From: Deltaproteobacteria bacterium
GTDB taxonomy: Bacteria; Desulfobacterota; Binatia; UBA12015
NCBI GenBank assembly: GCA_046583355.1
Contig: JAYGCM010000057.1
Location: 32,006 to 96,005 of the forward strand
Reading direction: 5' to 3'
DNA: 64,000 nt
The position numbers and the translations under genes were made by a program. Shown here piece after piece: positions 6,569 through 55,429 of the stretch. The stretch's first letter is position 1. Each line of letters starts with the position of its first letter. The notes beneath the pieces are model-generated. The model made no database searches, had not been told where the DNA came from, and saw only the letters and a list, made by a program, of their open reading frames with translations.

Positions 6569-6642
6569 TTGGCGACTTTCTCCATCGGGGCACGGCGCAG
6601 GGCCATAAGGTTGCTACGCAAGCAGATGCCCGCTGTCGAGAT

Positions 6643-17471: not shown

Positions 17472-17502
17472 TTTCCCGCCGGCCATGGAGTATCCCTGCT
17501 GA

Positions 17503-17850: not shown

Positions 17851-18125
17851 TGAGTGACGGAGAGAGGCCAGATGCCTATTATGTCGGGCGCCTGCTCGGC
17901 AAGCTCAAACTCCTCATCGCCACCGACGACGAAGTTCCGATGGATACCAAACTCGACACCCAGGCGATGATCAAGGAGTTCGCGCGCCACCTCTCCGCCC
18001 CGCTAGACGAGCAGGATGTGCCGACCTTGCAAGCACAGCATAACCACCTGCTTGTCGAGCTTGAGGACTTCCCCAACTGCGAGTCGCTGCTGCTTGCGCT
18101 GCCGAACTTCGCGCCCAACCTCTAG
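17850..18125 (+). CDS. hypothetical protein (91 aa), coupled to the TPR gene by a TAATG overlap
   Basis: An in-frame ATG at 17850 overlaps the TAA of the TPR gene. The sequence is MSDGERPDAYYVGRLLGKLKLL... Confidence 0.45.
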   Translation: MSDGERPDAYYVGRLLGKLKLLIATDDEVPMDTKLDTQAMIKEFARHLSAPLDEQDVPTLQAQHNHLLVELEDFPNCESLLLALPNFAPNL

Positions 18126-18142
18126 ACGCCGCCGATTGCGCC

Positions 18143-33976: not shown

Positions 33977-35998
33977 ATGGCGGGGCGAAAGCGAAAGAGT
34001 AAGTCGCGCAGGTCGAGCGCAGCCACGCCGCCGGCAATGCCGCTGCCGCGCTGGATGCCCCTTGCCTGCCTCGCCTTACTCCTCGTGCTCGCGTTGCCCG
34101 CGTGGCGCGCTCCCGCCAGGCTGGTGATCACGGGCGGCACCCCGCCTGCGGCCGAGGCGCGCGCCTTGACTCTGCTCGCCCAGGCCAGCGCGCGCCTGCT
34201 CTCGCCACTGGCCCCGGTGCCGGCACAGCCCGGCTTTCCCGCGGAAACCACAACACCCGCCGACGCGCCGGGATTGCTCGCCGGATTGCTGGCGCTGCCA
34301 GCCGTGGCCGCGGGCGAGCCGATTCTCGCCTGGAACCTGACCACCTTGCTGCTTGCCTGGCTCGCCGCCCTCGCCATGCTGGTCCTCGTGCATGCCGCCA
34401 CCGGCAGCCCGGTGGCGGCATTTGTGGCAGCCATCGCCTGGGCCATCCCGCCGGATTCCCTCGCAGCACCGCTGGCCGTGCTGCTGCGGGTCACCCCGCT
34501 GCTGCCCATGGCCGTGCTCGCCGGCGCCCGCCTGGCCGCCCGGCCGCGCCGCGTCGAGGTGGTCGCCGCAGGCGGCACCATGATTCTCATCGCCGCAGCG
34601 CCACCCGCTCTCGCGCTGGCCGCATTCTGCGTGGCCGGCCTGAGTGCCGGATTGGCGGGACGCCAAGACCGCCACGCACCGCTGCGGCTTGTCCTCATAG
34701 CCAGCCTCGCGGCAATGACCTGGATCTTGGCCGGCCATGGTCCCAGCTTCGCGCCGGGCGAGTTGCCCTTCTTCTATGGAGCCCTTCCCCTGCGGAGCTT
34801 TCTGCCCGGCGCCAGCAGCTTCCCCGGCGGCGCTTTGCTGCTCCTAGCCCTGGTCGGTGCCTTCTACCGGCGCGGCGCCGTCCGCCCCCGCGGCGGCCAC
34901 GATCCACGGACGCACCTCGCCGTTTTGATTGTCTTGATCGTGCCGGCACTCAGCGACTCGCTGGCTCTGCCCGACGGTGGCACCCTGCGGCTTCCTCTTG
35001 GCTGGCTGCGTGTGGCAGCGCCCGAGGCCGCCGCGATGCTCTCGGGACTGCGCCTACTGCTGCCCTTCGCCCTGGTCCTGCTCGCCGGCTACGGCACCGC
35101 CGCTCTCGCACGCGCCATGGCACCCGGTGCGCCGCGCAATATCCTGCTTGGCATCCTGGTCGGTCTGCTCCTCCTTGAAAACCTCCATCCGTCTCTCACC
35201 CAGGTCTCCTTCGGCCGCAGCAACCCCCGCGACGCTCTGCGGCTTACGCCGCCGGCCGAGGAAGCCCTGCTACTGCGCGGGGCTGCACCCGGGGCGCTTG
35301 TCGATCTGCCCGGCGGCGTCTACGACCCCGGCGCGCATCGCCTGCGCGCCGCCGCCTGGCACCTGCGCGCAACACCCGAGGGTCTCGCTCGGCCTGCGCA
35401 CGCGGCTGCCGCGCTGGCAGGTCTGCTCGCCGCACCGACGGAGAGTGCCCGCGCCGAGGCATTGGCCGCGCTCGGTGTCGGCAACCTCCTGGTGCATAAA
35501 CATGATTTCGCGCCCGACGAGTTCGCCGGGCTGCTGCGCGCACTGGCCCGCAGCGGTGGCGGTGGCGGGCGCCTGCGCACGCTCGGCGAGAGCCCGGCAC
35601 ACCTCCTGCTCGGGCTCACGGGCCAGTCCAGCACGTCGGAATCCTTGGATGCCTTGGAGTCCAACCTCCCGACCGAAACACGCCTGCGGCTACGCGGCCC
35701 GCAAGACCTCATCGTCTTCGAGCTCCACGCCGGTGGCAGCCAGAACTTCCGCCACCCGGAGCCCGAAAAGAGAACCCGGCTCACGATCCGCTTCTTCGAT
35801 GCCCATGGCCACCTCGTCAGCACCGAAACCGCGCGCGCGCTACTGCCGCTGGTAGTCGGGCGTGGCGGACGCGCCTATGTCGCCTTGCAAGTGAATCTGC
35901 CGGAGACGCCAGGCCACCACACGGCCACGCTTGCGCCAAGCAACGACCCGGCACTCACCCTCGCGATCCAACCAGTCGATATACAACAACTAGATTGA
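33977..35998 (+). CDS. large polytopic membrane protein (about 12 TM helices plus a C-terminal soluble domain); possible GT-C glycosyltransferase or polymerase
   Basis: 673 aa, Ala/Leu-rich, many hydrophobic helices, very high GC3. The overlapping ORFs on both strands are spurious. The function is guessed from context only. Confidence 0.5.
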   Translation: MAGRKRKSKSRRSSAATPPAMPLPRWMPLACLALLLVLALPAWRAPARLVITGGTPPAAEARALTLLAQASARLLSPLAPVPAQPGFPAETTTPADAPGLLAGLLALPAVAAGEPILAWNLTTLLLAWLAALAMLVLVHAATGSPVAAFVAAIAWAIPPDSLAAPLAVLLRVTPLLPMAVLAGARLAARPRRVEVVAAGGTMILIAAAPPALALAAFCVAGLSAGLAGRQDRHAPLRLVLIASLAAMTWILAGHGPSFAPGELPFFYGALPLRSFLPGASSFPGGALLLLALVGAFYRRGAVRPRGGHDPRTHLAVLIVLIVPALSDSLALPDGGTLRLPLGWLRVAAPEAAAMLSGLRLLLPFALVLLAGYGTAALARAMAPGAPRNILLGILVGLLLLENLHPSLTQVSFGRSNPRDALRLTPPAEEALLLRGAAPGALVDLPGGVYDPGAHRLRAAAWHLRATPEGLARPAHAAAALAGLLAAPTESARAEALAALGVGNLLVHKHDFAPDEFAGLLRALARSGGGGGRLRTLGESPAHLLLGLTGQSSTSESLDALESNLPTETRLRLRGPQDLIVFELHAGGSQNFRHPEPEKRTRLTIRFFDAHGHLVSTETARALLPLVVGRGGRAYVALQVNLPETPGHHTATLAPSNDPALTLAIQPVDIQQLD

Positions 35999-36089
35999 CG
36001 ATAGGCGATCAATGCCTGCGCTACAAAAGGCCCCGCGCGACGAAGCACCGTGCCTGCGGACGATCCTGCGCACGAAACACCATGCGGGT

Positions 36090-37145
36090 TCAGCCTGCGG
36101 GCTGCGCTGCGGCGCCTGCCTGCAAGGCGGCCTCGACCTCGGCGAAAACCTCGGCAACGCCGATCTCTGTCATTGCTGCGGCGCCGCCTGTGGCCGCGGC
36201 GCGCAAAACGCGATGGTCGCGCCCATAAGGGCGGTAGATTGCCGGATCCTTCGGGCCGAAGAGAGCCACGCAACGCACACCCTTTGCGGCCGCCAAATGC
36301 ATCGGTCCGGTATCGGCCGAGACAAAGACTGCCGCGCTTTCAATCAAGGCGGCCAGATCGAGCAGCGAGGTCGGCTGCGGACCAAGCACAGCAGCACCCT
36401 TGGCGGCGCGCAGGACTTCGCGGGCCAGACCTTCCTCGCCCGGCCCCCAAGTGACCAGCACGCGGCACTCCGCCTCGGCCTCGATGCGCGCGGCGAGGGC
36501 GCCGAAACGCTCGGCGGGCCAACGCTTGTCAGCGCCCTTATCGCTGGTGCCGGGGTGCAGGACGACAAAACGCCCTTGGTCACACCCGGAAGCCTCGCGG
36601 CAGGCTGCCGCGCGCGCCACGGCCGCGGCCGAATGCGGCAGGATATATTCACGCTCCTGCGAGTCGATCCCAAGCGGTCCGAGCAAAGAGCAGAATTTGT
36701 CGACCCGATGCGGCGACAAGGGCGGCGGGACGACGGTCTCGGTGGCAAAAAAACGGCTACCCTCGAGCGAATGCCCTTGCGCAAAAGCGATGCGCCGCGA
36801 CGCGCCCGAGAAGGCGGCATGAAATGCGCCCTTGAGGTTGCCTTGAAAATCGAGCGTCACATCCGGCGCACCCGCACGGATCTCGGCGGCGTAGGCACGA
36901 AACTCGCGGCGCAGCGTACCCCACGCGCGCGGGCCGGCGCGCAGCAACTCGCGGAAACGACAGCGCTCGAAGACATATACATGGTCGATACAGGGGTGCC
37001 CAATCAGGAGTTCCGCAGCGCGGTCTTCTACGACGAACGAGATCCTCGCCTCCGGCCGTGCCCGGCGCAGCAGCGTCAGGGCGGGCAGCGTATTGATCAC
37101 ATCCCCGATGGCGCTCAGGCGGATCAGCAGGAAACGATCGGGCAC
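36090..37145 (-). CDS. glycosyltransferase family 9 (ADP-heptose:LPS heptosyltransferase-like)
   Basis: N-terminal FLLIRLSAIGDVINTLPAL motif. The start is a GTG at 37145. Confidence 0.85.
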   Translation of the reverse strand: MPDRFLLIRLSAIGDVINTLPALTLLRRARPEARISFVVEDRAAELLIGHPCIDHVYVFERCRFRELLRAGPRAWGTLRREFRAYAAEIRAGAPDVTLDFQGNLKGAFHAAFSGASRRIAFAQGHSLEGSRFFATETVVPPPLSPHRVDKFCSLLGPLGIDSQEREYILPHSAAAVARAAACREASGCDQGRFVVLHPGTSDKGADKRWPAERFGALAARIEAEAECRVLVTWGPGEEGLAREVLRAAKGAAVLGPQPTSLLDLAALIESAAVFVSADTGPMHLAAAKGVRCVALFGPKDPAIYRPYGRDHRVLRAAATGGAAAMTEIGVAEVFAEVEAALQAGAAAQPAG

Positions 37146-37179
37146 GAGGCTTTCCTAGAGGTCCGGCCGAAAAGTGCAA
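37146..37179 (-). promoter_or_regulatory. promoter-like element TTGCAC-N16-TAGGAA-N6-GTG (leaderless start of the GT9 gene)
   Basis: The minus strand reads TTGCAC ttttcggccggacctc TAGGAA agcctc GTG. Confidence 0.45.
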
Positions 37180-37325
37180 CGAAGCACAAAACCGCGGGGT
37201 CCAACCGGCGCAGGAACCCGACCGAGAGCACAACGCCTGGAGGCCCGAGGAAACGCGGCCGCTTCCGGGTTGCGGCCCGCGCTGATACGCTACCCACGAA
37301 GCTGCGGTTCGACTGCGGCGCGACG

Positions 37326-38414
37326 ATGCCAGGAGCGCCGACCTTGAAAGCCCAGATCGACAGCCCGCATTTCGCCTCGCTCGACGGACTCCGCGGAGCG
37401 GCGGCCCTCATCGTGGTCTTCACGCATTGTTGTGGGGCCATCGCGCGGACACCGGAGATGGACTTCTGGATCTACCAAACGCCGCTGCGCATTCTCGCGG
37501 CCCCGGCAGGCGCGGTGCAGGTCTTCTTCGCGCTCAGCGGCTGGGTGCTGGCCTATTCGCTCTCGCGCCGCAGCCGACCGAGCGATACGGCACGCTATTA
37601 CCTGCGTCGCGTGCTGCGCATCCATCCGCCCTATATCGCCGCCGTACTGCTGGCCTGGGGCCTGAGCTTCCTCTATGTGGCCCTGCCCGATGCCGTCGGA
37701 TTGAACGGCTGGTTCAAGTCCAACCTCAAGGTTCACCTCTTGCCCGAGCAGGTAGCCATGGCCCTGCGCTTTCCCGGCTCAGCCAGCGGCCAACTGCCGA
37801 TCGGCTGGTCGCTGGCCGTCGAGATGATCTTCTCGTTTCTGATGCCGATCTTCTGCCTCGTTGCCACGCGGCTGCATTGGGCCGTGTTGGTGCCGGTGCT
37901 TGTCTATTCCTTCTCGAGCTCAAGCGAGTTCCCGGTGCTGCGTTGGTCTTTCGATTTCATTTTCGGAATGACGCTCTTCCTGGAACGCGAGCGCATCGCG
38001 GCCTTGGCGCGGCGCGTGCCGTCCTGGGGCCACGCCCTCTTCTTTGCCCTGACACTGGCCCTCTTTACGTGGCCAACCCAGATCTTCAAATCACCGCCGG
38101 AAATCCTGCGTGTCGCCATCGGCTCGGTCTTCTTCGTCGCCTCCGTGCTCTATATCCCTTGGGTCAGGCGGTTCTTTGCCACCAAGCCGATGACCGAATT
38201 GGGGCGGATCTCCTACAGCCTCTATCTCGTCCACTTCCCGATCCTGCTGGTGCTGGCGCCGCATCTCGTAGTGCCGGGCTGGCCCTGGCTGAGTCTCCTG
38301 ACAGTGCTTGTCGGTGTCGTCACCACCAGCCTGATCGCCGGCGATCTGGCCTGGCGGGCCGTCGAGCGGCCCTCCATGCACCTCGGCCGCTGGCTAGCGA
38401 AACGAATTCCTTGA
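37326..38414 (+). CDS. acyltransferase family 3 (OafA-like membrane O-acyltransferase)
   Basis: LDGLRGAAALIVVFTHC N-terminal signature and 10 TM helices. The 800-aa ORF starting at 36012 is an antisense artefact of the GT9 gene. Confidence 0.8.
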   Translation: MPGAPTLKAQIDSPHFASLDGLRGAAALIVVFTHCCGAIARTPEMDFWIYQTPLRILAAPAGAVQVFFALSGWVLAYSLSRRSRPSDTARYYLRRVLRIHPPYIAAVLLAWGLSFLYVALPDAVGLNGWFKSNLKVHLLPEQVAMALRFPGSASGQLPIGWSLAVEMIFSFLMPIFCLVATRLHWAVLVPVLVYSFSSSSEFPVLRWSFDFIFGMTLFLERERIAALARRVPSWGHALFFALTLALFTWPTQIFKSPPEILRVAIGSVFFVASVLYIPWVRRFFATKPMTELGRISYSLYLVHFPILLVLAPHLVVPGWPWLSLLTVLVGVVTTSLIAGDLAWRAVERPSMHLGRWLAKRIP

Positions 38415-43261: not shown

Positions 43262-45304
43262 ATGTTCAGACCACACCCCTTCTGCGAACGAGGCTCGCAC
43301 CGGCGCCTGGCACCACTTCTCGCCGGCCTCACCCTTGTCCTGCTGGGTGCGTGCCAGGCTTCCGAGCCGCGGCTCGCGCCCCTCTATTTTCTGGAGCAAG
43401 AGCTGGCCGGCGGGCTGCGAGCCGACGAGGTGCCGATCTGCGAGGTACGCAGCGAGCTGCGCCCATCCATCGGCTGTGGCAAGGCGCTCACCCTCGGGCG
43501 CCAGAAGCTCGCCTGGCCCGAAGGCGATTCAGCTCAGGCCAGCCACACCCTGCGTGCCCCTCTCACCATCCCCCTGCTGATCGCAGCCAAGCTCGGCGCG
43601 GCGCCGCTCACAGGCTCAATTCCCGTGGCCCCCTTTCGTCTCCCGGCAGGTACCGGCAACTTCACGCTCAGCCTGCCCGTGACAGACCTGGCCCCGCACG
43701 CGACGTTGCGCCTCAACGTCATCGCCTACCCGATCCACCCACGCCCCCGGCGCAAGACGCACTCGCTTGCCATCCCGGCGCGAGCCAGCCTGACGGTCAG
43801 CCTCGGCGTTCGTGAAGAAGCCCGTCAGGCCAAGCTCGGCACGATCCGCTTTCACCTCAGCGCGCACGACGAAGACGGCAACCAAATCTCTCTGCTCGAC
43901 GAAACGCTCACGCCCGAAGCGCTCCGCAGCGGATGGAACGACCGCCGGATCGACCTCGCCCACCTCGGCGGCCGTAAGGTAAGCTTTCATTTTGCCACCG
44001 AGGCCACCGAGGAATTCGCCGGCATGCTGCCGCTCTGGGGGGCACCGCAGGTCCTCGCACCCGTTGCCGATGCGAACGTACCCAATCTGCTCTTGATCTC
44101 GCTCGATACCATGCGTGCAGACATGATCGGCATGCAACTCGCCGGGCGACCCGTGACACCCTTTCTCGAGAGCCTGATCGCCCAGGGCACGCTCTTTTCC
44201 TCCGCGATCACCACCTTCTCCTCGACCACTGCCGCCCATATGAGCCTTTTCACCGGCGTCTACCCGCGCGTCCATGGCGTGGACTTCCCGACCCGCGTTC
44301 TCCCGCCGCAGATTCCCACGCTTGCGCGCCTGCTCGCGCAGCATGGGTGGGAAACTGCTGCGGTTACCGAGAACGGAATGATCGGCGCGCGCAGCGGCTT
44401 TGCGCGCGGCTTCCGCTTTTATCGGGAGAACCGGGAGAGCACGAGCTCATGGGTCCAGGCGAGCCTGATACGCAAAACCTTCGCGGACGGGCTCTCCTGG
44501 ATGCGCTCGCATGCCCACGACCGCTTCTTCTTCTTCCTCCATACCTACGAGGTCCACGACCCCTACCAGCCACCGCCCGAGCATGACCTCTTCCCCGCCC
44601 ACGGCGGCCAACTGCAATTTGCGAAGCATGCCGGCGAGGCACATTTCGTCGATGCCGAACTCGCGAAACTCTTCGCCGCCCTGCGCGATGCAGGAATTCT
44701 GGACCAGACGATCGTGATCATCACCTCCGACCACGGCGAGAGTTTCGGGGAAGGCGGCCACGTCGGCCATAGTGGCGCCATGGTGGAGAGCGTGATGCGA
44801 GTCCCGCTTCTCGTCTGGGCACCCGGCCGGGTGCCCGCAGGCCGGCGCATCGACACGCAGATCTCGATTGTCGATCTCATGCCGACCATTCTCGACCTGC
44901 TCGGTGCAGCGCCGCCATCGGTCTCCAACGGATATAGCCTCGCCGGATTTCTGCGCGGCGAGAAGACACCGGCGTTGCCGACGTTGCGCTTCGCCGAGGC
45001 GCCCAACGGGAAGAACCGGACCACCCGGATCGTGGCACGAAGGGCAGACCGTAAATGGGTGATCGACCCGCTTGCGGGCGGCGCCGTGGAGGCCTTCGAC
45101 CTGGGCCCCGACGGCCGCGAAAAGATCCGCGCAGCCGCGCAGACGGACACCACCGAGGGGCGGCTGCTGCAAAAGGCCTTCGAGCGTGAGGTCGCCGACA
45201 CGCGCCGCCGCTTCTCGCTCGAGACCGCTGCTGCGACCGTGCTCGACACAGAGCTCGACTCGATCACGGCAAAAAAACTCAAGGCCTTAGGCTATATCGA
45301 CTGA
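43262..45304 (+). CDS. sulfatase-family lipoprotein with an N-terminal non-catalytic domain
   Basis: Lipobox LLGAC. Sulfatase signatures LLISLDTMRADM and ...SSTTAAHMSLFTG (the AAH triplet standing in for the Cys/Ser-X-Pro-X-Arg formylglycine region), and a C-terminal metal-binding DHGE. Confidence 0.8.
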   Translation: MFRPHPFCERGSHRRLAPLLAGLTLVLLGACQASEPRLAPLYFLEQELAGGLRADEVPICEVRSELRPSIGCGKALTLGRQKLAWPEGDSAQASHTLRAPLTIPLLIAAKLGAAPLTGSIPVAPFRLPAGTGNFTLSLPVTDLAPHATLRLNVIAYPIHPRPRRKTHSLAIPARASLTVSLGVREEARQAKLGTIRFHLSAHDEDGNQISLLDETLTPEALRSGWNDRRIDLAHLGGRKVSFHFATEATEEFAGMLPLWGAPQVLAPVADANVPNLLLISLDTMRADMIGMQLAGRPVTPFLESLIAQGTLFSSAITTFSSTTAAHMSLFTGVYPRVHGVDFPTRVLPPQIPTLARLLAQHGWETAAVTENGMIGARSGFARGFRFYRENRESTSSWVQASLIRKTFADGLSWMRSHAHDRFFFFLHTYEVHDPYQPPPEHDLFPAHGGQLQFAKHAGEAHFVDAELAKLFAALRDAGILDQTIVIITSDHGESFGEGGHVGHSGAMVESVMRVPLLVWAPGRVPAGRRIDTQISIVDLMPTILDLLGAAPPSVSNGYSLAGFLRGEKTPALPTLRFAEAPNGKNRTTRIVARRADRKWVIDPLAGGAVEAFDLGPDGREKIRAAAQTDTTEGRLLQKAFEREVADTRRRFSLETAAATVLDTELDSITAKKLKALGYID

Positions 45305-46589: not shown

Positions 46590-47432
46590 TTAGAGATTCA
46601 GGCCGAGGCCGAAGATAACCGCGAGCGCCATCGTGACCAGCACGAATAGGGGCAGTAAAACGGCGAAGATCACACGCGGGACCGAGGTCTCTTGTGCCGC
46701 CGAAAGGCCGATGATCTGGACGATCAGCCCACCCCAGACAAAGACCAGAATCGGTCCGAGAACGGGCAGCAGACCCAGAACCGAAGCCGCGCCGGAGCTG
46801 TAGCAGGAGACCCGAAAGGTCGTCTCGAAGGGGTGATTCGCGCCGCCCACGAGCAGCAAGCAGAGGTGCGTGATCCCCGCGCCGAGGAACTGCCCCGCGA
46901 CCACGAAGAAGGGATAGAAGAAAACATAACTCATCCCGAGAAGAGTCGTATTCATCCCCCCCTCAAAGCCGCCCATGCTTCCGCCGAGGTCGAAATTGCC
47001 GGCGAAATCGAGCTCCGCACCGCGGAAAAGAAGGGTCGAGACGATGACCACCGGCCATCCGACCACCAGCATGAAGAAGATCGGCGTGCCGAAGCCGCCA
47101 CTGCGGCGCATGGTCGCGAAGGTCTCACGCGGCCGCGTCAGGACGAGGCTGATGGTCGTAAAGAGGCCGATCAGGAAGCCAAGTTCGGCGCGTTCCTCAA
47201 AGGGCGGGCCGGATTCCGCCACCGGACCCGCCTGGCCAAGCGGAGGCGGCCCACCCGCCGCAGCCGGTGGCATGAATTCCGCCATCGACTCGAGCGGGCA
47301 CCAATCGGCCATGCCTTCGGCCCAGGCCAAATCCCCCGGAAGGAAGCGGCCGGTCAAGAGCCCTTCGCGAATCTCATGCTCGGGGAAAACGCCCAGCGCT
47401 TCCCCGTCTCGACCCAGATGAAAATCCGCCAT
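46590..47432 (-). CDS. DUF4339 (GYF-like) N-terminal domain fused to a Yip1-type membrane domain
   Basis: N-terminal MADFHLGRDGEALGVFPEHEIREGL...WCPL, then five hydrophobic helices. Confidence 0.55.
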   Translation of the reverse strand: MADFHLGRDGEALGVFPEHEIREGLLTGRFLPGDLAWAEGMADWCPLESMAEFMPPAAAGGPPPLGQAGPVAESGPPFEERAELGFLIGLFTTISLVLTRPRETFATMRRSGGFGTPIFFMLVVGWPVVIVSTLLFRGAELDFAGNFDLGGSMGGFEGGMNTTLLGMSYVFFYPFFVVAGQFLGAGITHLCLLLVGGANHPFETTFRVSCYSSGAASVLGLLPVLGPILVFVWGGLIVQIIGLSAAQETSVPRVIFAVLLPLFVLVTMALAVIFGLGLNL

Positions 47433-47704
47433 CAGAACTCCGTTCCGCCCTCAGGCGCGACCTCAACCACGGCACCGCGCACAAGAACCGGCACGATACT
47501 CTTCCCCTTGGTGAGCTTGAGAAACTCCGTCAAAGCCTGCGGCGTCACCAGCAGATCTACCTCTTCGACCAACACGCCCTCGGCCGCAAGCCGCGCCCGA
47601 AGACGCTGCGAATGCGGGCATCCCGTTCGCGTATAAAGAAGCGCTCTCCCCACCTTCCGACGACGATAGACCGCGACGCCCCAAGTCGCCAGCCTTATCC
47701 TCAT
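47432..47704 (-). CDS. glutaredoxin-like small redox protein
   Basis: LLYTRTGCPHSQRLRARL matches the Grx/NrdH CPxC region (here CPHS). The stop overlaps the downstream start (TGATG). The start is uncertain. Confidence 0.55.
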   Translation of the reverse strand: MRIRLATWGVAVYRRRKVGRALLYTRTGCPHSQRLRARLAAEGVLVEEVDLLVTPQALTEFLKLTKGKSIVPVLVRGAVVEVAPEGGTEF

Positions 47705-47746: not shown

Positions 47747-48310
47747 TCAGCGATAGCCTCGCCACCGGCCGCGCAAGCGCAGCCAGCCGTTCGAGACCAG
47801 CAGAACCGCCAATGCCGCCACTGACACCAGAGGCATCCGAAGAACCTTGGCGGCGAAACGACGCAGCGAACCAAGAGACGAATTCCCGGCCCCGAAGATC
47901 CCCAGATGACTCGCGATGGCGGGCAGCCGCAGGAGAGTAACCGCACGGGCCTGCCCCTGATCGTCGAAGGCGACGATCGATCGGGTGCGCAGGAGAAAAG
48001 GCAATAGGCGCAATTCGCTGGTCGCGCCGCCCACCCGAATCGCGACGACATCATAAAGCTCCCGGCGCAGCTCGGGAAGCAAGGCGTAGCGCTCCTCCCA
48101 GCGAGCTACTCGCACGCGGGCGACATCGAGCGTCTCGCGCAGGTCCGCATCGGACTCGCGGAGCAGAATATCAATCCGCGCCTCGCCGAAAAGCCCGCGC
48201 ACCCGCTCGGTCAGATCCGCCATGGAGCTACCCTCGCCGGTCTGCACGATCAGCACCCGCGCCACCCCCAAGAGCGGAATCGGGCGCAGGAAGGTGAGCA
48301 GATTACTCAT
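47747..48310 (-). CDS. hypothetical protein (187 aa), last gene of the giant-GT operon
   Basis: ATG at 48310 (MSNLLTFLRP), 8 nt inside the upstream gene end, with GGAGGAGGG immediately upstream. The longer ORF to 48514 is an extension. Confidence 0.5.
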   Translation of the reverse strand: MSNLLTFLRPIPLLGVARVLIVQTGEGSSMADLTERVRGLFGEARIDILLRESDADLRETLDVARVRVARWEERYALLPELRRELYDVVAIRVGGATSELRLLPFLLRTRSIVAFDDQGQARAVTLLRLPAIASHLGIFGAGNSSLGSLRRFAAKVLRMPLVSVAALAVLLVSNGWLRLRGRWRGYR

Positions 48311-51300
48311 GGCCCTCCTCCCAGCCATAGGCGTTGAAGAGCCGCTGGCCGAGCAGCGGCCAATCATAATTGGCGGCAACAAAGCGCCGCGCCGCCTCGA
48401 CCTGCGCCCGCCGCCGGACCGGGTCGCGCAATAACCCGACGACCGCGTCCGCAAAGGCCTGCGCATCGTCGGCCAGCGCCACCGCCGAGGCGTCAGCGCC
48501 GAGGCCCTCGGCACCGATCGTCGTCGAGACGACAGCCGTACCGCTCGCCATGGCCTCGAGAATTTTCAACCGCGTGCCGGAGCCGCGCAATACCGGAGCG
48601 ACAAAGACCGGCGCGGCGCGATATTCCGGCCCCGTCTCTGGCACCCGCCCGCTCACCTCCACATGCGGATCGGCCGCAGCCAGATCGAGGATCGGTGCCG
48701 GTGGATACGCGCCGACAATCCGGAATTTCGCCTCCGGAATCTCTTCGCGCACCCGCGGCAGAACCTCCTGGGCGAAATACAGCGCTGCTTCGACATTCGG
48801 CTCATGGCGGTAGAAGCCGACGAAGAGAATGCAGGGCTCGGGTGTCTCCGCGGGCGCAAAGAAAAATGACTCGCAATCGACCCCATTGGGCACGACATGG
48901 AGCCGGCTGCGGTCGACATAGTTCGCCAATACATCACGGTCGATATCGCTCATCAGGATTGTGCGATCAGCGGCTTCGACGGCATGGATCTCGTGGCGAA
49001 AAGTCCGCAGCCCGTCCATCCAGAGGCCGAGCCAACGCAGCCAGGAGCCCGGCAGGCCGCGCGCGCGCGCCAGCGCCACAAAGCTCACATCATGTTCGAC
49101 CAGCACGCGCCGCACACCGTCGGTCGCCGGCGGCAGAAAATGCGCCATATGGGTGTACTCGACCTGCACGATATCGAAGGAGCGGCGCTCCATCCATTCA
49201 AAAATCTCGTCAGTGAGGCGCGGCGAGTGGAAACCACGCAACTTGCCCGGAGCGAGCCAGCCGCCACCGCGGCTATCCGGATCGCGCCGGATCAGCACGA
49301 CGTCGCGGCAGAGGAGGCCGAGCTCGCGCAGGCTCTCGGCGTCGGTCTCGGCATCCGTATCGGCCAGTGAGAGGAGCGTGATATCGGCCCGTTTTACCGT
49401 CTCCCGCAGAAGGTTCGAGATCCGCACGGCGCCACCATGCAGCGCCGGCACCGGACTCCAGGGCGAAATCACCAGAACCTGCGGACGCTCGGGCAGAGCG
49501 GGCTTGGGATGGAAGCGGCCCCGGTAGGCCGCGCGCGAACGCGAGAGCCGGAAGATATCGGCATCGGTCAGCGCGCGCTCGACATTGCGTTCGCGTCGGC
49601 GCGCGGCGAGCACCGCCGGCAGCTGGCGAAAAAGTCCGCGCAGAGTCGCAAACCCAGCAGCTGGGCCGATCTCGCCCAACACTCGCGTCGGCAGAATCGC
49701 CAGTCCAGCCAGATGCGGTAGCAGCAACCGCCAGGAGGAGACGTTTTTCCACACCAGCGCTGCCAGGTTCGTGACGAAAAAAGAGTGGATCGTCGCCTCG
49801 CTCCAGCGCCGCAGAGTCGTCCCACGATGTTTATGATGGACACGCGAGCGCGGCGCGAGCACGGAGGGCCAGCCGCGGCGCCAGGCGCGGTAGCCGAGGT
49901 CCGTATCCTCGATATAAACCGGCGAGAAAACCGCCTCGTCGAAACCACCGAGCGCGAGAAAACGGGCCCGATCATAGAGCGAGGCGCCGCCGCCGGCGAA
50001 GAAGACAGGGTAGAGAAGGTCGTCTTCAAAACGATCGAGGTGGAAGAGCCGCAGCGTGCCCCACTCGAAACGCGCGTGTACCTTGCCGGTCTCCCAGCGA
50101 GGCTTGTTCCGGTCGATGAAATCGATCTGGGCGGAGACGCCAAAGAGGTCGGGCTCTTCCCCGAAGGCGTCGAGCAGAGGCTGAAGGAAATCTGGCTCGA
50201 CGACCATATCGTTATTGAGCAGCAATAAGGCCGGGTTGCGCGCCTCCTGCGCGCCTCGATTGGTCGCACCGGCAAAGCCTTCGTTGCGCTCCATGCGCAA
50301 GCAACGCAACCAGGGCATCTCGCCCTGCAGCAAGTCGAGGTAGGCGATCGTATCGTCGTTGCTCGCATTGTCGACGACAATCACCTCGTCGTCGGGGTGG
50401 CCGTGGGCGCGGATGGCCGCGGCCAGAGGCGGCAGGCTCATTTCGAGCAGATCGCGGCCATTCCAGGTCGGGATGACAATCGAGACCGGATCCGAGGGCG
50501 CGACCCCGGCATCCGGCAAGGCTGCGGAGACCGCCGCGCCGCGGCGCGGCAGAAGGTCCACCACAAGGAGTCCGAGTGCGACGATCAGCGCCAGCGGCAG
50601 GCCGGCGAGAGCCAGCATCGCCAGCAGCATTCCCTGCACCAAGGCGCGTCCCGCATGCCGACTGAGTCGGCCCGCTCGCAGGACTTCCGAATAGAGCGAA
50701 AATGGCAGGCGACGGTGGTGCACGTCCGTGGGCGCGCTTTTCTGCACGGCCTCGCCAAGCCGCGCCTCCAGCTCGTCAATGCGTCTCTCGGTGGTGAGCA
50801 ATCGCCCCGTGGCGGTCGCGAGCGCTACACGCAGGCCGTCGGCGTCCGCGATCGGATCCCCATCAAGCACCGCGAGAGTCGGCGAGTCGGTGTCGCCGGG
50901 CAAAACCGGCAAGGTCGTATTATGCAGAAAGAGGAAGTCGTCCGGATCGGCCGCCGTCTCCTCCATCACGCCCGCGACCAGATAGCGGGCGATGAACGCC
51001 GGATGGCAACCGGCGTGGTCGTCGCCTGTGGCGTAGCTTGTATGGCGCGTATGGACGCGAGGCCCGACTGCGGCGGCCGTGTCGTGCGTCACACGCAGGG
51101 AAATCTGGAAATCACGGCCGCGCGATGCGAGGATCGGGCGGAACTCGAAGCGCTGCCAGCCCTCGCGAATGACCTGCCCCAGCGGTGCCGTCACACGGGC
51201 AATCCGCTTGCCGCCGTGGCGCAACTCGAAACAAAGATTGCCGGCACCGGCGACATTCTCCGTGCGCAGCCAGATATCGATTTGGGCGAGGCCATTGAAG

Positions 51301-52634
51301 GCGGCGCAGAAGCTCTGCCGGCACGCATGCCCTTCGCCCAGGCTCGGCGAGAACGCGGCCACCTGGCTGAAGAATTCATCGGCCACCAGCGCATCTTCCT
51401 TGGCCGGCGCATCCGCACGCGAGACGCCCGCGACCCAGGCCGAACGCCCGGCATCGCACGCCGGATGAGGGTCCGCACAGAAGTCGGCCAGCGGTTCCAC
51501 GACGCGATCCCAGGCCAGTTCCTGGCGCATCGTCGCGAAGGCCTCTCGGCGAGCGGTGGTTTCGCCCTCATCGAGCAACGACGCGATGGCCGACGCAATG
51601 GCGGCGCTCTCGCCCGGAGCAACGATCCGGCCGAGCCCGGCGGCGGCCACCCGCGCTGCCAGTTCGTCGCCTTCGGTGAGGACCATCGGGCGGCCGCACC
51701 AGATGTAGTCGAGAACACGGGTACGGAAAGCGAATTCCGACTCGACACCGGGCCGATGCAGGCTCACCCCCACATCACATTCAGCAAGGTAGAGATGGCG
51801 CTGTTCGTAGGGCACCCAATCGAGAAAGAAGAAGGCTTCGCCTGCCGGGTCGAGGCGCGAGGCGAGCTCACGCGCTTCGCGTGCCACCTGCATCTCGCCG
51901 ATCTCGGCATTGGGATGCCGCGCGCCCAGGAATACAGCCTTGACCTCCGGGCGTGTCTCGCGCAATTTCGCAACCGCGTGCACCAGGGTGATCGGGTCGA
52001 CCCAATTCCACATCCCACCCGCCCAGAGAACGATCTTGTCGGCAGCCCCGATACCCGCCGTTTCGCCGCGCAACACAGCCCGGCCGGGCGCGGGAGGCTC
52101 CTGCGGCAGGCCAAAGGGCACGATTCGCAAAAGGCGGCGCAACTCAGGGTCGTCGCGATAATTCGCGCGGTTCAGGCGCCCGGCCGAGGCCAGCATGCCG
52201 AGCCAGAAGCGACGCTGGATCGCGTTGGCGGCAAGAAAACAATCGCCGTTGGCGAGATGGTGCTGCAACCAGCGCAATGCCAGCAGCGCACGCGCGCCAC
52301 CGCGGTCGAAGCGCTCGCCGAAAAAATCGAGGTTCGAGAGGATGAAAGGGTCGTAGAGGTCGACGACCAGCGGCTTATGCAGCGCCGTCATCAGCTCCAT
52401 ACCGCCGGGCAGAAAGACGGAATCCGTGGCTGCGGCCGCCGACCGCGGCACGCCACCCTCTTCCAAGGCGATCAGCTCGACACCGGAGTTCTCCGGCAAT
52501 TCACTGCCCGCGGGCGCGGCGATCGTGACCTCGATGCCACGGCGCGCCACGGCGCGGGCCAACTCGAGCGAGCGGATGGCCGAGCCGGCCATCGAAGGAC
52601 CGATACGATCCCAGCTGAGAAACAAGCTCCTCAT
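48303..52634 (-). CDS. 1443-aa three-domain glycosyltransferase (GT4-like / GT2 / GT4)
   Basis: The N-terminal part is a GT1-fold domain. The central domain is VSIVIPTWNGRDLLE...VVDNASNDDT...LLNNDMVV (GT2 DxD). The C-terminal part is GT4 (VPNGVD, ...LEAMASGTAVVST). Confidence 0.85.
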   Translation of the reverse strand: MRSLFLSWDRIGPSMAGSAIRSLELARAVARRGIEVTIAAPAGSELPENSGVELIALEEGGVPRSAAAATDSVFLPGGMELMTALHKPLVVDLYDPFILSNLDFFGERFDRGGARALLALRWLQHHLANGDCFLAANAIQRRFWLGMLASAGRLNRANYRDDPELRRLLRIVPFGLPQEPPAPGRAVLRGETAGIGAADKIVLWAGGMWNWVDPITLVHAVAKLRETRPEVKAVFLGARHPNAEIGEMQVAREARELASRLDPAGEAFFFLDWVPYEQRHLYLAECDVGVSLHRPGVESEFAFRTRVLDYIWCGRPMVLTEGDELAARVAAAGLGRIVAPGESAAIASAIASLLDEGETTARREAFATMRQELAWDRVVEPLADFCADPHPACDAGRSAWVAGVSRADAPAKEDALVADEFFSQVAAFSPSLGEGHACRQSFCAAFNGLAQIDIWLRTENVAGAGNLCFELRHGGKRIARVTAPLGQVIREGWQRFEFRPILASRGRDFQISLRVTHDTAAAVGPRVHTRHTSYATGDDHAGCHPAFIARYLVAGVMEETAADPDDFLFLHNTTLPVLPGDTDSPTLAVLDGDPIADADGLRVALATATGRLLTTERRIDELEARLGEAVQKSAPTDVHHRRLPFSLYSEVLRAGRLSRHAGRALVQGMLLAMLALAGLPLALIVALGLLVVDLLPRRGAAVSAALPDAGVAPSDPVSIVIPTWNGRDLLEMSLPPLAAAIRAHGHPDDEVIVVDNASNDDTIAYLDLLQGEMPWLRCLRMERNEGFAGATNRGAQEARNPALLLLNNDMVVEPDFLQPLLDAFGEEPDLFGVSAQIDFIDRNKPRWETGKVHARFEWGTLRLFHLDRFEDDLLYPVFFAGGGASLYDRARFLALGGFDEAVFSPVYIEDTDLGYRAWRRGWPSVLAPRSRVHHKHRGTTLRRWSEATIHSFFVTNLAALVWKNVSSWRLLLPHLAGLAILPTRVLGEIGPAAGFATLRGLFRQLPAVLAARRRERNVERALTDADIFRLSRSRAAYRGRFHPKPALPERPQVLVISPWSPVPALHGGAVRISNLLRETVKRADITLLSLADTDAETDAESLRELGLLCRDVVLIRRDPDSRGGGWLAPGKLRGFHSPRLTDEIFEWMERRSFDIVQVEYTHMAHFLPPATDGVRRVLVEHDVSFVALARARGLPGSWLRWLGLWMDGLRTFRHEIHAVEAADRTILMSDIDRDVLANYVDRSRLHVVPNGVDCESFFFAPAETPEPCILFVGFYRHEPNVEAALYFAQEVLPRVREEIPEAKFRIVGAYPPAPILDLAAADPHVEVSGRVPETGPEYRAAPVFVAPVLRGSGTRLKILEAMASGTAVVSTTIGAEGLGADASAVALADDAQAFADAVVGLLRDPVRRRAQVEAARRFVAANYDWPLLGQRLFNAYGWEEGHE

Positions 52635-55429
52635 CGCGGCGACTCGGCAAAGGTTCGCAAAGAGAGCATCTCGCCTTCACAACTCTGCTGGCCGATCTTC
52701 AGTCCGCCGCGTCTATCCGGCGCGCGCCAGAGCAAGACCTCGTTGCCGGGCGCGGCGCCGCGGCTGCGCACGCAGATGGTCAACTCCTCGGGCGCCGTGC
52801 CGTCTGCCGACGCGGCAAGCTCGACACCGACAAAGGCGCGGTCGACCAACTCCTCGGCGCGAATCTCGCGCCCGCCGCGCAATTGCCCGGTGCGGTCGCG
52901 GACCTCGACCTCGATGATATGCTGGTTGCGGCGCGCGTAGGTGCCGAAACGTAAATCCACCCGGCGCAACTCGTTGCCGCGACAGAGAATCTCTTGGCGA
53001 AAAGGCGCGTCGTCGCGCAATGGCTCGCCGCTTTGCGCACGCAATTGGCAGGCGTCATAGAAAAGATCGGCCGGCTCCAGAGCCACATCGGCCGCAGCGC
53101 CAGCCTCCATCGCAATCGCTTCAGGCACGACGGCCTCCGAGGCGGGTACGCGGATAAGAATCTCCTCGAGAACATCGCCCCATAGCGGCGCTACAGCAAG
53201 CGTATCGTAGCTGCGGCGCACCATCGCGCCGGCGGCCGCGCCAAGCGCACGACAGCGCTCCTGATCTCCGCCCAAATGCACCAGAGCTTCCTCCCATGCC
53301 ACGCTGCCATCCGCCAGCCGCGCCAGACGTCCGTCGTCGCTAGCGGCGACAAGGGCGGGAAAGGGACTGCCAAGAGTCGGTACGCCAACCAAGGATGCCT
53401 CGAGAAATTTCACCGCGCTTTTGGCGCAGTTGAAATGGTTCTCCGTGACCAGAGGGGCCAGGTTCAGATCCACGCCGGCCAGCAGCGCCGGCAGGTCACT
53501 CCAGCCGACCAACTCGTGGCGTAGGATGCGCTCGGCAAAGCCCACCAACTCCGCCGGCAGGGCGACCGGGCCGCCCAGCACCAGTGTAAGTTCCGGAATC
53601 GCTGCCAGCGTACCCGCCAATGCCTTGGCTATCCGCTGGAGGTCGGCGTCATGCGTAGCGGTCCCCGTGAAGAACCCCAGCACTGGTGCGCTACGCGGCA
53701 ATGCGACGACCTGATCGGCGCAAGCCAGCTGCGCCTTGCCCACCACATTGGCAATGGTGAAGGCCGGCAGGCCGAGCGATTCGGCCGCATCTGCCAGCTC
53801 CGGCGTCGAGCCGATGAAGGCATCGCAGAGCGCTGCGCAGCGCGCATAGGCTCGATTGATGGCAGAGAACCCGCGCGCCATGACCGGATCGCCAGCAGCC
53901 AGCGCCGGTGCGTCACTCCCCAAATCCGGATGGAAAATCAGATCATCCACAGCAAAGACGACACGCAGGCCGCGACGGCGCGCCGCCGCCACCGCTTGCG
54001 CCACGCTCTGGCTGAAGGGCGTGCGAAAGAGAATCAGCAGGTCGGCCTGCTCGACTTCGGCCACCGCCCGCGGGTCGGCATGAAAAAGAACACGGCTATG
54101 GACGCCGAGCGCGGCCAGCGATTCCGCAGCGTGATGGACGCGGTAGCGCAGCGGCGCCAGGTCGCAGCCACAAAGAAAGAGTACCCGCGTTCCGTGCAGA
54201 ACCGGCCGCGCACGCGGCAGGCGTCGCCGAACCGCCGTGCGAACCACATCACGATAGATCTCCAATGTCTCGGCGCTCTGCTCCGCGAGCGAGCGGAACT
54301 CCCGCGCGCTTGCTCGCGCGGCTGTCGCAAACGAGGCCAGCTGGCCGCGGTCCGATGCCAAGCCCCGCAGCACCGCGGCTAGCGCGGCGGCGTCGCCCGC
54401 CTCTACAATCCGCCCGTTACGGCCATCCTCGATGACCTCCTGCGGGCCACCGCAATCGGTGGCGACAACCGCGACGCCATGCGCCATCGCCTCACGCGTG
54501 ACCAGCGAGAAAGACTCTCGCATGCGCGAGGGAACGACCAGGACATCGGCCGCGGCAAGCCGCGCACCGAGTTCCGCGCCACCAAAAGCAGGTGCCCGAT
54601 GAAGGTCGCGCCGCGCCGGCACGGATTCGTCCAGCGTCGCATGCAATATAAAATCACAAATGCCTTCGGGAATCGTCTCGACCGCCGCCAGCAAATCGCC
54701 GAGTCCCTTCGCACGATTTCCCGCACCGCCGAAGAACGCAACTCGCAGGGGCTGCTCGGGCGACAAAACGCCCGGGCGCTCGGCTATGAATTCGGGAAAA
54801 TCGATGCCATTGGGCGAGACAAGGATTCCATCGACCGGCCAGCCGCTGCGTTGCAGGTCGTCGCGAAGGAAGGCCGAGGGAACGAGCACTCGGTCGGCGA
54901 GAGACCATGCGGCGCGCAGCACCTCCTGGCGGCGTGCGAAATCAACCTCCGGGCAGGCCGCACATCCGGTGGCCGGAAGCGGCGACGGGCAGATCGCCAA
55001 GCTCGGTGTGAGACGAAAGAGGCACGGACAAAGCCACCACCAATCGTGCAGCGTGAGCACGACAGGAACCTTGCGCTCGGCAGCCGCTTCGAGCGGCCCC
55101 ACGCCGAGCCCCTGCAAGCCGTGCAAATGCAAAACGTCCGGGCGAAACGCATCGAGAAAGGCGGCGCAACCGGCACGCGCCGCCTCATTGCGGTAGCCTT
55201 CGGCCGAGAAAGGAGCGAGAGCGCCGCCGACATTCACCCGCCACAACGGCCCGCCGTCGACCTCCTCTTTGGCGATCTCCCCAAGCGGCACCTCCGCGCT
55301 GGCACGGCCGGCGAAGATCGAAACCGAATGCCCCGCGCGCCTTGCGGAGGCCGCAAGCCGGCGGCATACCTGGATAGCGCCGCCATAGAAATCGGGCGCG
55401 TAGAGCGGAGCTGCCATCGCAATATGCAT
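52631..55429 (-). CDS. 932-aa two-domain glycosyltransferase (tandem GT4/GT1-fold)
   Basis: N-terminal GT4 domain (LTLHDWWWLCP, SPNGID, ...TREAMAHGVAVVATD) and a second GT1-like Rossmann half. ATGA overlap with the downstream 1443-aa gene. Confidence 0.8.
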   Translation of the reverse strand: MHIAMAAPLYAPDFYGGAIQVCRRLAASARRAGHSVSIFAGRASAEVPLGEIAKEEVDGGPLWRVNVGGALAPFSAEGYRNEAARAGCAAFLDAFRPDVLHLHGLQGLGVGPLEAAAERKVPVVLTLHDWWWLCPCLFRLTPSLAICPSPLPATGCAACPEVDFARRQEVLRAAWSLADRVLVPSAFLRDDLQRSGWPVDGILVSPNGIDFPEFIAERPGVLSPEQPLRVAFFGGAGNRAKGLGDLLAAVETIPEGICDFILHATLDESVPARRDLHRAPAFGGAELGARLAAADVLVVPSRMRESFSLVTREAMAHGVAVVATDCGGPQEVIEDGRNGRIVEAGDAAALAAVLRGLASDRGQLASFATAARASAREFRSLAEQSAETLEIYRDVVRTAVRRRLPRARPVLHGTRVLFLCGCDLAPLRYRVHHAAESLAALGVHSRVLFHADPRAVAEVEQADLLILFRTPFSQSVAQAVAAARRRGLRVVFAVDDLIFHPDLGSDAPALAAGDPVMARGFSAINRAYARCAALCDAFIGSTPELADAAESLGLPAFTIANVVGKAQLACADQVVALPRSAPVLGFFTGTATHDADLQRIAKALAGTLAAIPELTLVLGGPVALPAELVGFAERILRHELVGWSDLPALLAGVDLNLAPLVTENHFNCAKSAVKFLEASLVGVPTLGSPFPALVAASDDGRLARLADGSVAWEEALVHLGGDQERCRALGAAAGAMVRRSYDTLAVAPLWGDVLEEILIRVPASEAVVPEAIAMEAGAAADVALEPADLFYDACQLRAQSGEPLRDDAPFRQEILCRGNELRRVDLRFGTYARRNQHIIEVEVRDRTGQLRGGREIRAEELVDRAFVGVELAASADGTAPEELTICVRSRGAAPGNEVLLWRAPDRRGGLKIGQQSCEGEMLSLRTFAESPR

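Follow-up and report, generated by a model that had tools for sequence, protein, structure and literature searches.

An operon for two multi-module glycosyltransferases and a small partner protein in a Binatia genome

In pathways that depend on an ATP-binding cassette (ABC) transporter, glycosyltransferases (GTs) carrying several modules on one polypeptide are the rule, with two to three modules in WbdA, three modules plus a coiled coil in WbbB, and two modules in WbbM (PMC11231755). Here, we describe an operon from a Deltaproteobacteria bacterium of the Binatia whose three genes, all on the minus strand, encode two giant multi-module glycosyltransferases, P2 and P1, and a small protein, P3. 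It lies at 47747-55429 of a 64,000-nucleotide stretch of contig JAYGCM010000057.1 (positions 32,006 to 96,005 of the forward strand), referred to below as the window, and is among the largest dedicated glycan-building units there. The two large polypeptides contain five glycosyltransferase-fold domains, one GT-A and two GT-B in P1 and two GT-B in P2. To our knowledge, no member of Binatia (phylum Binatota) has been cultured, and the cell-envelope glycans of the group are undescribed. We consider it somewhat better than an even chance (a probability of about 0.55) that the operon encodes a membrane-associated multi-module GT complex, which would use a lipid-linked acceptor on the cytoplasmic side of the inner membrane to make a heteropolysaccharide or a long glycan of defined structure, in the manner of ABC-transporter-dependent systems. 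A first-pass annotation of this DNA had called such a gene arrangement an unusual way to encode an assembly line, a view that is not supported in the light of WbdA, WbbB, and WbbM, since multi-module polymerases are normal in ABC-transporter-dependent pathways (PMC11231755).

Five glycosyltransferase folds in two polypeptides

The P2 gene (52631-55429) and the P1 gene (48303-52634) encode 932 and 1443 amino acids (aa), respectively, both from ATG starts, and the P3 gene (47747-48310) encodes 187 aa when counted from an ATG within a longer open reading frame (ORF) that begins with GTG. The P2 stop and the P1 start overlap by 4 nucleotides (nt) at 52631-52634 (ATGA, in the context ...GCCGCG ATGA GG...), and the P1 stop and the P3 start overlap by 8 nt at 48303-48310 (ATGAGTAA, in the context ...GGCC ATGAGTAA TCTG...). 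The three genes are translationally coupled, and both the ORFs and their junctions are as the first-pass annotation had given them. Database proteins (labels such as P0001 denote database protein clusters, and labels such as L001 denote loci recovered from the genomes of relatives) are 100% identical over the full length to P1 (P0001) and P3 (P0189); the P2 counterpart (P0107) has 928 aa, starts four codons later, and is identical to P2 from residue 5 onward. All three carry the label of a "Deltaproteobacteria bacterium" metagenome-assembled genome, and their relatives that of Candidatus Binatia. A gene caller based on codon-usage log-odds, trained on the window genes with firm Pfam support, selected the P1, P2, and P3 genes as well. 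The G+C content of the window is 61 to 71% in 2-kb steps.

Pfam, NCBIfam, and alignments divide P1 into six modules, namely, a divergent GT-B domain, a beta-sandwich, a putative helical linker, a putative hydrophobic hairpin, a GT2 domain, and a GT4 domain. Conservation in P1 was read from an alignment of 45 sequences with a mean column identity of 57%. The EX7E motif in the C-terminal half is a hallmark of retaining GT4 enzymes. Module 1, a divergent GT4-like GT-B domain (aa 1-395, 51450-52634), matches Glyco_trans_1_4 at 42.6 bits over aa 200-355 (cut-off, 27) and Glycos_transf_1 at 29.2 bits, and a match to the WcaI family extends across aa 193-377. By sequence, the Protein Data Bank (PDB) returned MshA alone for this module, as a weak match (E 0.011). 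The module is nevertheless among the best-conserved stretches of P1, with long runs of invariant residues, and it carries a variant of EX7E (E298/E300...D309) with a 2-residue insertion.

The beta-sandwich (core aa 428-537, 51024-51353) is followed by the helical linker (about aa 595-650, 50685-50852), which was delimited by sequence and by an alignment block. The length of the linker differs by tens of residues among homologs, and it matches the coiled-coil family DUF7310 weakly (E 0.11); it is possibly a coiled coil. The only hydrophobic segment of P1 comes next (aa 661-702, 50529-50654), with a Kyte-Doolittle maximum of 2.75 and a central (V/I)-P-(L/F)-A motif, of which the proline, together with flanking Arg/Lys residues, is kept in the large majority of the aligned homologs. 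From this pattern, we infer a re-entrant membrane hairpin that would leave the N- and C-terminal halves of P1 cytoplasmic.

The GT2 module (aa 716-946, 49797-50489) matches Glycos_transf_2 (PF00535) at 78.4 bits, against a cut-off of 23.3, and Glyco_tranf_2_3 at 68 bits. D755, D760, N807-N808-D809 at the DxD position, and E909-D910 are invariant in all 45 sequences, and the sequence matches in the PDB are the chondroitin polymerase K4CP, dolichyl-phosphate mannose synthase (DPMS), and heparosan synthase. By its profile, its DxD position, and its predicted catalytic acidic residue, the module is a GT2 domain of the GT-A, inverting type. The C-terminal GT4 domain (module 6; aa 1061-1430, 48345-49454) matches Glyco_transf_4 (56 bits), Glyco_trans_1_4 (132.8 bits; cut-off, 27), and Glycos_transf_1, as well as TIGR03087 stp1, at 170 bits and under the cut-off of that family. 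Its nearest PDB sequences are PimA and PimB (E 3e-21). H1066-G1067-G1068, K1357, and E1360 are invariant; E1360 is the second Glu of EX7E, and the first position is occupied by Ser.

Synthase-dependent systems such as BcsA, PgaC, and hyaluronan synthase (HAS) hold their GT2 domain among several transmembrane helices that form a channel, and they carry a QxxRW motif. We considered and rejected a BcsA-like processive synthase for P1, which has no channel, a single hydrophobic segment, and no QxxRW. After E909-D910, P1 shows just a T-R-R-x-W-like string ending at W944, and BcsA- or HAS-type proteins were not among its PDB matches.

Structures were predicted for P2 and P3. The AlphaFold2 model of P2 (pLDDT, 90.9; pTM, 0.90) is compact and has three domains, and P2 has no hydrophobic segment of its own. 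Module 1 (aa 1-400, 54230-55429), delimited by Pfam and the model, is a canonical retaining GT4 domain with Glyco_transf_4 and Glycos_transf_1 matches over aa 15-372 (95.3 and 81.9 bits versus a cut-off of 27) and an intact, invariant EX7E (E305 and E313). Its structural neighbors include GlgM, glycogen synthases, sucrose-phosphate synthase, and the methylmannose-polysaccharide mannosyltransferase. The module also contains a Cys-rich insertion (aa 128-160, about 54950-55048; H128-D129-W-W-W-L-C134-P-C136 ... C147 ... C156-A-A-C159), in which C134 never varies and C147 and C156 rarely do. This insertion may be a metal site, which would not be usual in GT4 enzymes.

Module 2 of P2 (aa 412-765, 53135-54196) is a divergent second GT-B domain of the Glyco_trans_1_4 or Glyco_trans_1_2-like type. 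Its Glyco_trans_1_4 match over aa 587-720 is borderline (27.8 bits versus a cut-off of 27); in the AlphaFold2 model, it is a complete GT-B fold with two Rossmann halves, and it aligns with P2 module 1 at an hhalign probability of 99.0. R428, Y429, R430, D495, D496, H593, D596, K670, S671, K674, and E677 are invariant, E677 being the only part of EX7E that is retained. The structural check that had been proposed for the two proteins, as run for P2, thus revealed a complete second GT-B domain. The C terminus (aa 790-928, 52646-53062) is all-beta in the model and has no Pfam match.

GT profiles were therefore matched in each of the five modules, the lowest score being 27.8 bits, and all four GT-B modules, with P2 module 2 at the border, score at or above the Pfam cut-off of 27. 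The first-pass annotation had described the proteins as GT4-GT2-GT4 and GT4-GT4 with five catalytic domains. The GT modules and the five folds stand, by Pfam and, for P2, by AlphaFold2. Both proteins, however, carry further non-GT modules, and three of the five GT modules are without the canonical EX7E. The noncanonical positions are themselves conserved, which argues that these modules are under selection, and all five are putative catalytic domains.

The beta-sandwich of about 110 aa occurs once in P1 and once in P2. The two copies (P1 aa 428-537 and P2 aa 800-908) are homologous, with an hhalign probability of 98.6 (E 5e-16). The Pfam scan of both proteins offered no adequate model for this domain; the copy in P1 has a weak DUF6212 match (E 1.5e-4) that is under the cut-off and overlaps it only partially, and a PDB search with the beta-sandwich profile returned nothing at E <= 10. 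Searched against 1.84 billion representatives, the profile of both copies nonetheless detected 3126 clusters at E <= 1e-3 (772 at E <= 1e-10), and some proteins carry the domain in tandem, with up to 8 copies in a 3922-aa protein. When 10 of the proteins with a beta-sandwich were scanned with Pfam, two had no match, and the other eight had GT4 plus WsaF_C (one also with DUF6212), the GT-C-type YfhO or DUF6541, GDSL-type, or methyltransferase domains. As annotated by these profiles, the partner domains in the eight proteins are those of glycan-handling enzymes throughout.

P3 consists of a Rossmann-like alpha/beta domain (aa about 15-135) and a long C-terminal helix that is hydrophobic at aa 152-179, and it has many conserved arginines. 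It has no Pfam or NCBIfam match, Alg14 included, and a PDB profile search returned only noise (DARPins). Alg13/Alg14 and the bacterial Cps14F/G-type proteins are split glycosyltransferases. We rejected a role of P3 as an Alg14-type half-GT because the GT-B modules of P1 and P2 are all complete, leaving no orphan half.

Conservation in Binatia and a core shared with other phyla

Full-length homologs of P1 form ~75 clusters at 47 to 66% identity, nearly all of them labeled as Binatia or "delta proteobacterium" metagenome-assembled genomes. A scan of species-representative genomes yielded 33 Binatia loci with a P1 homolog. A P3 homolog lies directly downstream of P1 in 26 of these and a P2 homolog directly upstream in 25. 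The gene junctions overlap as they do in the window, and the P2>P1>P3 order recurs in independent genomes; the synteny comparison that had been proposed for this locus thus shows the order to be conserved in Binatia relatives. Across Binatia, the genes that track P1 are P3 and, less strictly, P2, and no others.

That the long ORFs are artifacts, either misassembled fusions of separate genes or pseudogene read-through, was an option raised by the first-pass annotation itself, and its probability is practically nil. The ~75 independent protein clusters that show the full-length architecture derive from many different assemblies and sources, among them contigs of 7.0 and 8.1 Mb, and about 30 species-level Binatia genomes share it. 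Codon-usage scores are uniform along the P1 and P2 genes, and the model of P2 is compact, with three domains and a pTM of 0.90. Since the architecture of P1 and the P2>P1>P3 order are conserved across Binatia, an assembly artifact is excluded.

P2 homologs occur in a long form of about 930 to 1010 aa and in a short form of 530 to 640 aa, the latter occurring in other Binatia clades and consisting of the second GT-B domain and the beta-sandwich, and one Binatia clade is without any P2. One genome (P0060, locus L029) encodes a short P2 and P1 as a single polypeptide of 2074 aa, which has four GT modules.

Downstream of P3, the operon probably runs on for two more genes, making five rather than the three that had been described. 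The candidate fourth gene (47432-47704, minus strand) encodes a 90-aa glutaredoxin-like protein with a C-P-H-S motif, which barely passes the cut-off of the NCBIfam family "UXX-star (seleno)protein family 3" (98.4 bits versus 97). The protein ends in ...GGTEF before TGA, with no U-x-x-stop ending, and so looks like a form without selenocysteine. The candidate fifth gene (46590-47432, minus strand) encodes a 280-aa membrane protein with Pfam GYF_2 and Yip1 domains, and its start overlaps the stop of the glutaredoxin-like gene (TGATG). In 10 Binatia loci of the closest clade, the P3 homolog is likewise succeeded by a glutaredoxin-like gene (the overlaps in L023 being of 4 nt), and in four, a GYF/Yip1 gene comes after it. 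A methyltransferase gene comes after P3 in L010, L020, L027, and the P0072 locus. Promoter and terminator scanning of the window found 16 terminator-like sites versus 10.5 +/- 3.5 expected, and none was convincing at the operon ends.

Some Binatia loci have further neighbors. In clades without a long P2, a divergent gene for a YfhO-type GT-C protein lies beside P1 in L002 (7632-10013, minus strand), and L020 (17489-24003) encodes a 754-aa protein without a Pfam match, an FG-GAP/ASPIC protein, and a CBM96 protein. L016 has a DUF3473 polysaccharide deacetylase and an extra GT2; L030 has both families as well, and L010 and L014 have one of them apiece. The DUF3473 deacetylase, the extra GT2, and like neighbors in L002, L020, and L016 are features of exopolysaccharide loci.

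By homology, the evolutionary core of the system is hairpin-GT2-GT4 together with a P3-like domain, in at least three other phyla. P1 residues about 650-1436 have homologs, mostly 30 to 38% identical, in Acidobacteriota, Planctomycetota, and Armatimonadota. A P3-like gene directly follows the GT2-GT4 gene in the Planctomycetota loci L042, L062, and L041, and likewise in L034, and one lies beside an Armatimonadia GT2-GT4 homolog in L074. The Acidobacteriota GT2-GT4 proteins of ~900 aa carry the P3-like domain at their N terminus (hhalign probability, 94.4; E 8.5e-8). A third format was observed at 14462-15970 of L038, where a 502-aa Planctomycetota protein encoded just past a Wzt homolog has an N-terminal P3-like domain (E 1.6e-5).

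The genes around these relatives include components of ABC transporters. In L039, the GT2-GT4 gene is followed by a gene for a 264-aa membrane protein with six segments and then by a Wzt homolog, with overlapping ends, and in L038, Wzt lies two genes downstream of GT2-GT4. In the Anaerolineales locus L081, a GT-B like P1 module 1, a GT-B like P2 module 2, and beta-sandwich modules are encoded by separate genes, within a cluster that also contains Wzt with a Wzt_C carbohydrate-binding domain, RmlC, a nucleoside diphosphate-sugar dehydratase, a methyltransferase, and GT2s. These arrangements offer a natural example of modular GT evolution, from separate genes (Anaerolineales) to a GT2-GT4 pair with a small partner (Planctomycetota) and a fused partner (Acidobacteriota). 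In Binatia, the modules form assemblies of three, four, and five GTs.

Proposed role of the operon

We propose the following model for the complex. P1 would be seated in the inner membrane through its re-entrant hairpin, which would place all of its catalytic modules in the cytoplasm, and P3 would provide a second membrane anchor or a scaffold through its hydrophobic helix. With its many conserved arginines, P3 would be suited to bind a phosphate-bearing acceptor or another protein of the complex or pathway. P2, being soluble, would be recruited to P1, possibly through paired beta-sandwiches; alternatively, these domains might hold the growing glycan. The GT2-GT4 pair would build a backbone with alternating beta and alpha linkages, to which P1 module 1 and both P2 modules would add further residues or branches. 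Such a role for the three modules fits the graded content of Binatia loci, which encode P1 and P3 only, these two with a short one-GT P2, or these two with a long two-GT P2. The product would then be exported through a transporter encoded elsewhere in the genome.

With three GT modules in P1 and two in P2, the operon has the multi-module format of polymerases in ABC-transporter-dependent systems. A polymerase is further supported by GT2-GT4 relatives whose genes are, in places, contiguous with Wzm/Wzt genes (L039) or near them (L038) and by the unfused modules in the Wzt cluster of L081, and a complex is supported by gene fusions of the Rosetta-stone type, namely, short P2 with P1 in L029 and the P3-like domain with GT2-GT4 in Acidobacteriota. 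Several points weigh against this proposal. Neither Wzm/Wzt, Wzx/Wzy, or outer membrane polysaccharide export (OPX) proteins nor an initiating phosphoglycosyltransferase or a chain terminator was found either in the 64-kb window or up to 10 kb away from P1 in any of the 33 Binatia loci, and a Wzt query found no ABC ATPase in the same regions. P1 and P2 themselves contain no terminator module (methyltransferase, kinase, or Kdo transferase), and none is attached to the helical linker of P1. With no exporter linked in Binatia, wzm/wzt linkage is seen only in remote relatives (contiguous in L039, and in L038 and L081), so that the assignment of the pathway depends on proteins in other phyla that are 26 to 41% identical. 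Moreover, P1 modules 1 and 6 and P2 module 2 lack the canonical EX7E, and the hairpin, the coiled coil, and the contacts among P1, P2, and P3 are predictions from sequence.

The lack of a linked transporter or terminator would suit the picture drawn by the first-pass annotation, a nonprocessive assembly line in which each module adds one residue to a single defined oligosaccharide, such as a glycolipid head group, a lipopolysaccharide (LPS)-core or lipid-anchored glycan, or a repeat unit that is later flipped and polymerized by Wzx/Wzy. Five modules of different types could make as many linkages, the C-terminal GT4 domain of P1 is most like PimA/PimB, which glycosylate a membrane lipid, and large membrane proteins are encoded near P1 in some loci, among them the divergent YfhO-type GT-C protein beside P1 in L002. 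We nevertheless regard this scenario as rather unlikely. No conserved Wzx/Wzy candidate lies nearby in the Binatia loci, and GT2-GT4 genes are contiguous with Wzm/Wzt in Planctomycetota, with unfused modules in the Wzt/RmlC/methyltransferase cluster of L081, a context typical of processive cytoplasmic polymerization. Fused GT pairs of opposite mechanism are, in addition, the usual format of disaccharide-repeat polymerases (PMC11231755).

The missing exporter could also be explained if the glycan were never exported as an envelope polymer, being instead an intracellular storage or methylated polysaccharide or a glycan attached to protein. GlgM, glycogen synthases, and the methylmannose-polysaccharide mannosyltransferase among the structural neighbors of P2 module 1, as well as the methyltransferase that follows P3 in some loci, would be in keeping with this. 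Such fold matches are generic for the GT4 family, however, and the conserved hydrophobic hairpin of P1 and hydrophobic helix of P3 point to work at the membrane; the relatives linked to Wzm/Wzt argue in the same direction. An intracellular or protein-linked product is thus highly improbable, and we favor the membrane-associated complex making an exported polymer or long glycan.

On a broader and more speculative view, which we consider unlikely to be correct in all its parts, P1 and P3 would represent an unstudied cross-phylum polymerase system. Here, the P3 family would be an obligate membrane-anchored partner of a hairpin-GT2-GT4 co-polymerase, and the beta-sandwich (>3000 clusters) would be a glycan-binding or docking module that marks glycan-building enzymes. 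In Binatia, the system would be fused with up to five GT modules (six in one genome) and possibly uncoupled from a dedicated Wzm/Wzt. If it indeed runs without a dedicated Wzm/Wzt, a different hand-over to export is implied. Apart from this view, the beta-sandwich, which Pfam leaves unannotated in thousands of glycan enzymes, and the P3 family, as a candidate accessory subunit, may be of wider use.

Neighboring genes and comparison with known systems

The first-pass annotation had linked the operon to genes within 15 kb and had proposed a sulfated, possibly O-acylated, glycan. The genes are present. Those 10 to 15 kb away encode a PAPS (3'-phosphoadenosine 5'-phosphosulfate)-type, NoeE-like sulfotransferase (32799-33809; Sulfotransfer_3, 115 bits), a polytopic membrane protein of 653 aa (34037-35998), a GT9 heptosyltransferase (36090-37145, minus strand; Glyco_transf_9, 121.9 bits), and an acyltransferase-3 protein (37338-38414, plus strand). 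An 800-aa plus-strand ORF at 36012-38414 was rejected as a gene, its first ~440 codons being the antisense of GT9 and the true acyltransferase-3 gene being 37338-38414. Closer to the operon, a plus-strand gene (43262-45304) encodes what had been called a sulfatase lipoprotein. The lipobox (LLGAC) and the Sulfatase Pfam domain (147.6 bits) are there, the latter preceded by a 235-aa N-terminal domain of no known family.

Formylglycine sulfatases carry a C/S-x-P-x-R motif that is converted to formylglycine. The lipoprotein has T-T-A-A-H at the motif position instead. Among the eight Sulfatase-family relatives near P1 elsewhere that cover the motif, only one (in L009) has C-A-P-S-R. In L018, L020, L024, L027, L028, and L031, similar Thr-type Sulfatase-family enzymes (about 440 aa each) are encoded a few kb from the P1 operon. 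By their T-x-P/A-x-H motif, such enzymes are probably phosphoesterases or transferases of the alkaline-phosphatase superfamily, and those near the P1 operon may act on the same glycan.

A single locus for a sulfated, O-acylated surface glycan, comprising the operon and the sulfotransferase, GT9, acyltransferase-3, GT-C-like, and "sulfatase" genes, would draw on a genuine PAPS-type sulfotransferase, GT9, and Acyl_transf_3 within 10 to 15 kb of the operon, on the same genes 2 to 7 kb from the operon in the relative L001, and on Sulfatase-family genes near the operon in about eight loci and an Acyl_transf_3 gene near it in one distant locus. This reading is, in our opinion, very unlikely. The two clusters are separated by genes for isoleucyl-tRNA synthetase, LspA, a nitroreductase, a pyridoxamine 5'-phosphate oxidase (PNPOx)-like protein, an alcohol dehydrogenase, and others. 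The sulfotransferase gene is always beside that of alanyl-tRNA synthetase and is found only in the four closest loci, a pattern in line with conserved genome order and not with a functional link. A Thr nucleophile is present in the window "sulfatase" and in most of its relatives near P1, and GT9 beside LspA is explained more simply by LPS core synthesis. With unrelated genes intervening, the sulfatase motif absent, and linkage confined to the closest relatives, a sulfated or O-acylated product is unsupported.

On the other side of the operon, a Nudix gene is divergent from P2 and begins about 110 bp upstream of it, as had been noted; its start is most likely at 55539, and the codon-usage gene caller placed it at 55503. 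We rejected this gene as a hint of GDP-mannose hydrolysis, as its product is NudE/ADP-ribose-like and under every curated cut-off. Farther away, a same-strand run at 15395-21669 (plus strand) contains a gene for a PMT_2-type GT-C membrane protein (15395-16915), several small ORFs, and then genes for a LuxE-like acyl-protein synthetase (18143-19243) and for an 809-aa fusion of a LuxC-like acyl-CoA reductase with a class-III aminotransferase (19240-21669). The encoded pathway would seem to convert a fatty acid, via an aldehyde, into a long-chain amine or an amino lipid. A lipid-related cluster at 2026-9230 encodes an NAD-dependent epimerase, a PlsC-type acyltransferase, a wax-ester synthase/DGAT (4183-5565), a methyltransferase, and a B12-binding radical SAM enzyme (6643-8535).

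Among known systems, WbdA of Escherichia coli O9a/O8 and Klebsiella O3/O5 has two to three GT4 modules per polypeptide, one for each linkage. Its acceptor is lipid-linked and lies at the cytoplasmic face, where a separate membrane-associated partner, WbdD, recruits the polymerase (PMC11231755). P2, with its GT4 plus GT-B di-module and no hydrophobic segment of its own, resembles WbdA in format, which is not to say in orthology. In contrast to P1 and P2, WbdA has no GT2, hairpin, or beta-sandwich, and its gene lies beside wzm/wzt. The partners also differ: WbdD is a kinase/methyltransferase with a coiled-coil ruler, whereas P3 is a 187-aa Rossmann-like protein.

WbbB of Klebsiella O12 and ORF6 of serotype O7 combine several GT modules and a coiled coil in one protein (PMC11231755). 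Three catalytic modules and a helical spacer per polypeptide are the features of this type, in which two fused GTs give a disaccharide repeat (PMC11231755). P1 is akin to WbbB in having a helical linker of variable length between its N- and C-terminal modules. WbbB, however, is built from GT99, GT102, and GT103 modules and terminates its chain with Kdo; the linker of P1 is short, and a role as a ruler would be pure conjecture. P3 is like Alg13/Alg14 in format alone, having no Alg14 Pfam match and partner proteins whose GT-B halves are complete.

Homologs outside Binatia include uncharacterized GT2-GT4 fusions of about 770 to 910 aa in Acidobacteriota, Planctomycetota, and Armatimonadota, which correspond to P1 residues ~650-1436 and come with a P3-like gene or domain; fusions of 830 to 850 aa in Chloroflexota and Actinomycetota are likewise homologs of this region. 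Unlike P1, these fusions have no N-terminal GT-B domain, no beta-sandwich, and no P2 partner. Our literature searches found no experimental study of GT2-GT4 fusions, the P3 family, or the beta-sandwich, and nothing relevant on Binatota/Binatia together with glycosyltransferases or exopolysaccharides, or on DUF6212.

In conclusion, several GT modules per polypeptide with coupled genes are known, while the architecture described here is uncharacterized, as are the partner family of P3 and the beta-sandwich common to P1 and P2. Current models stand, and the format of the multi-module polymerase is extended to a new lineage and a new architecture.

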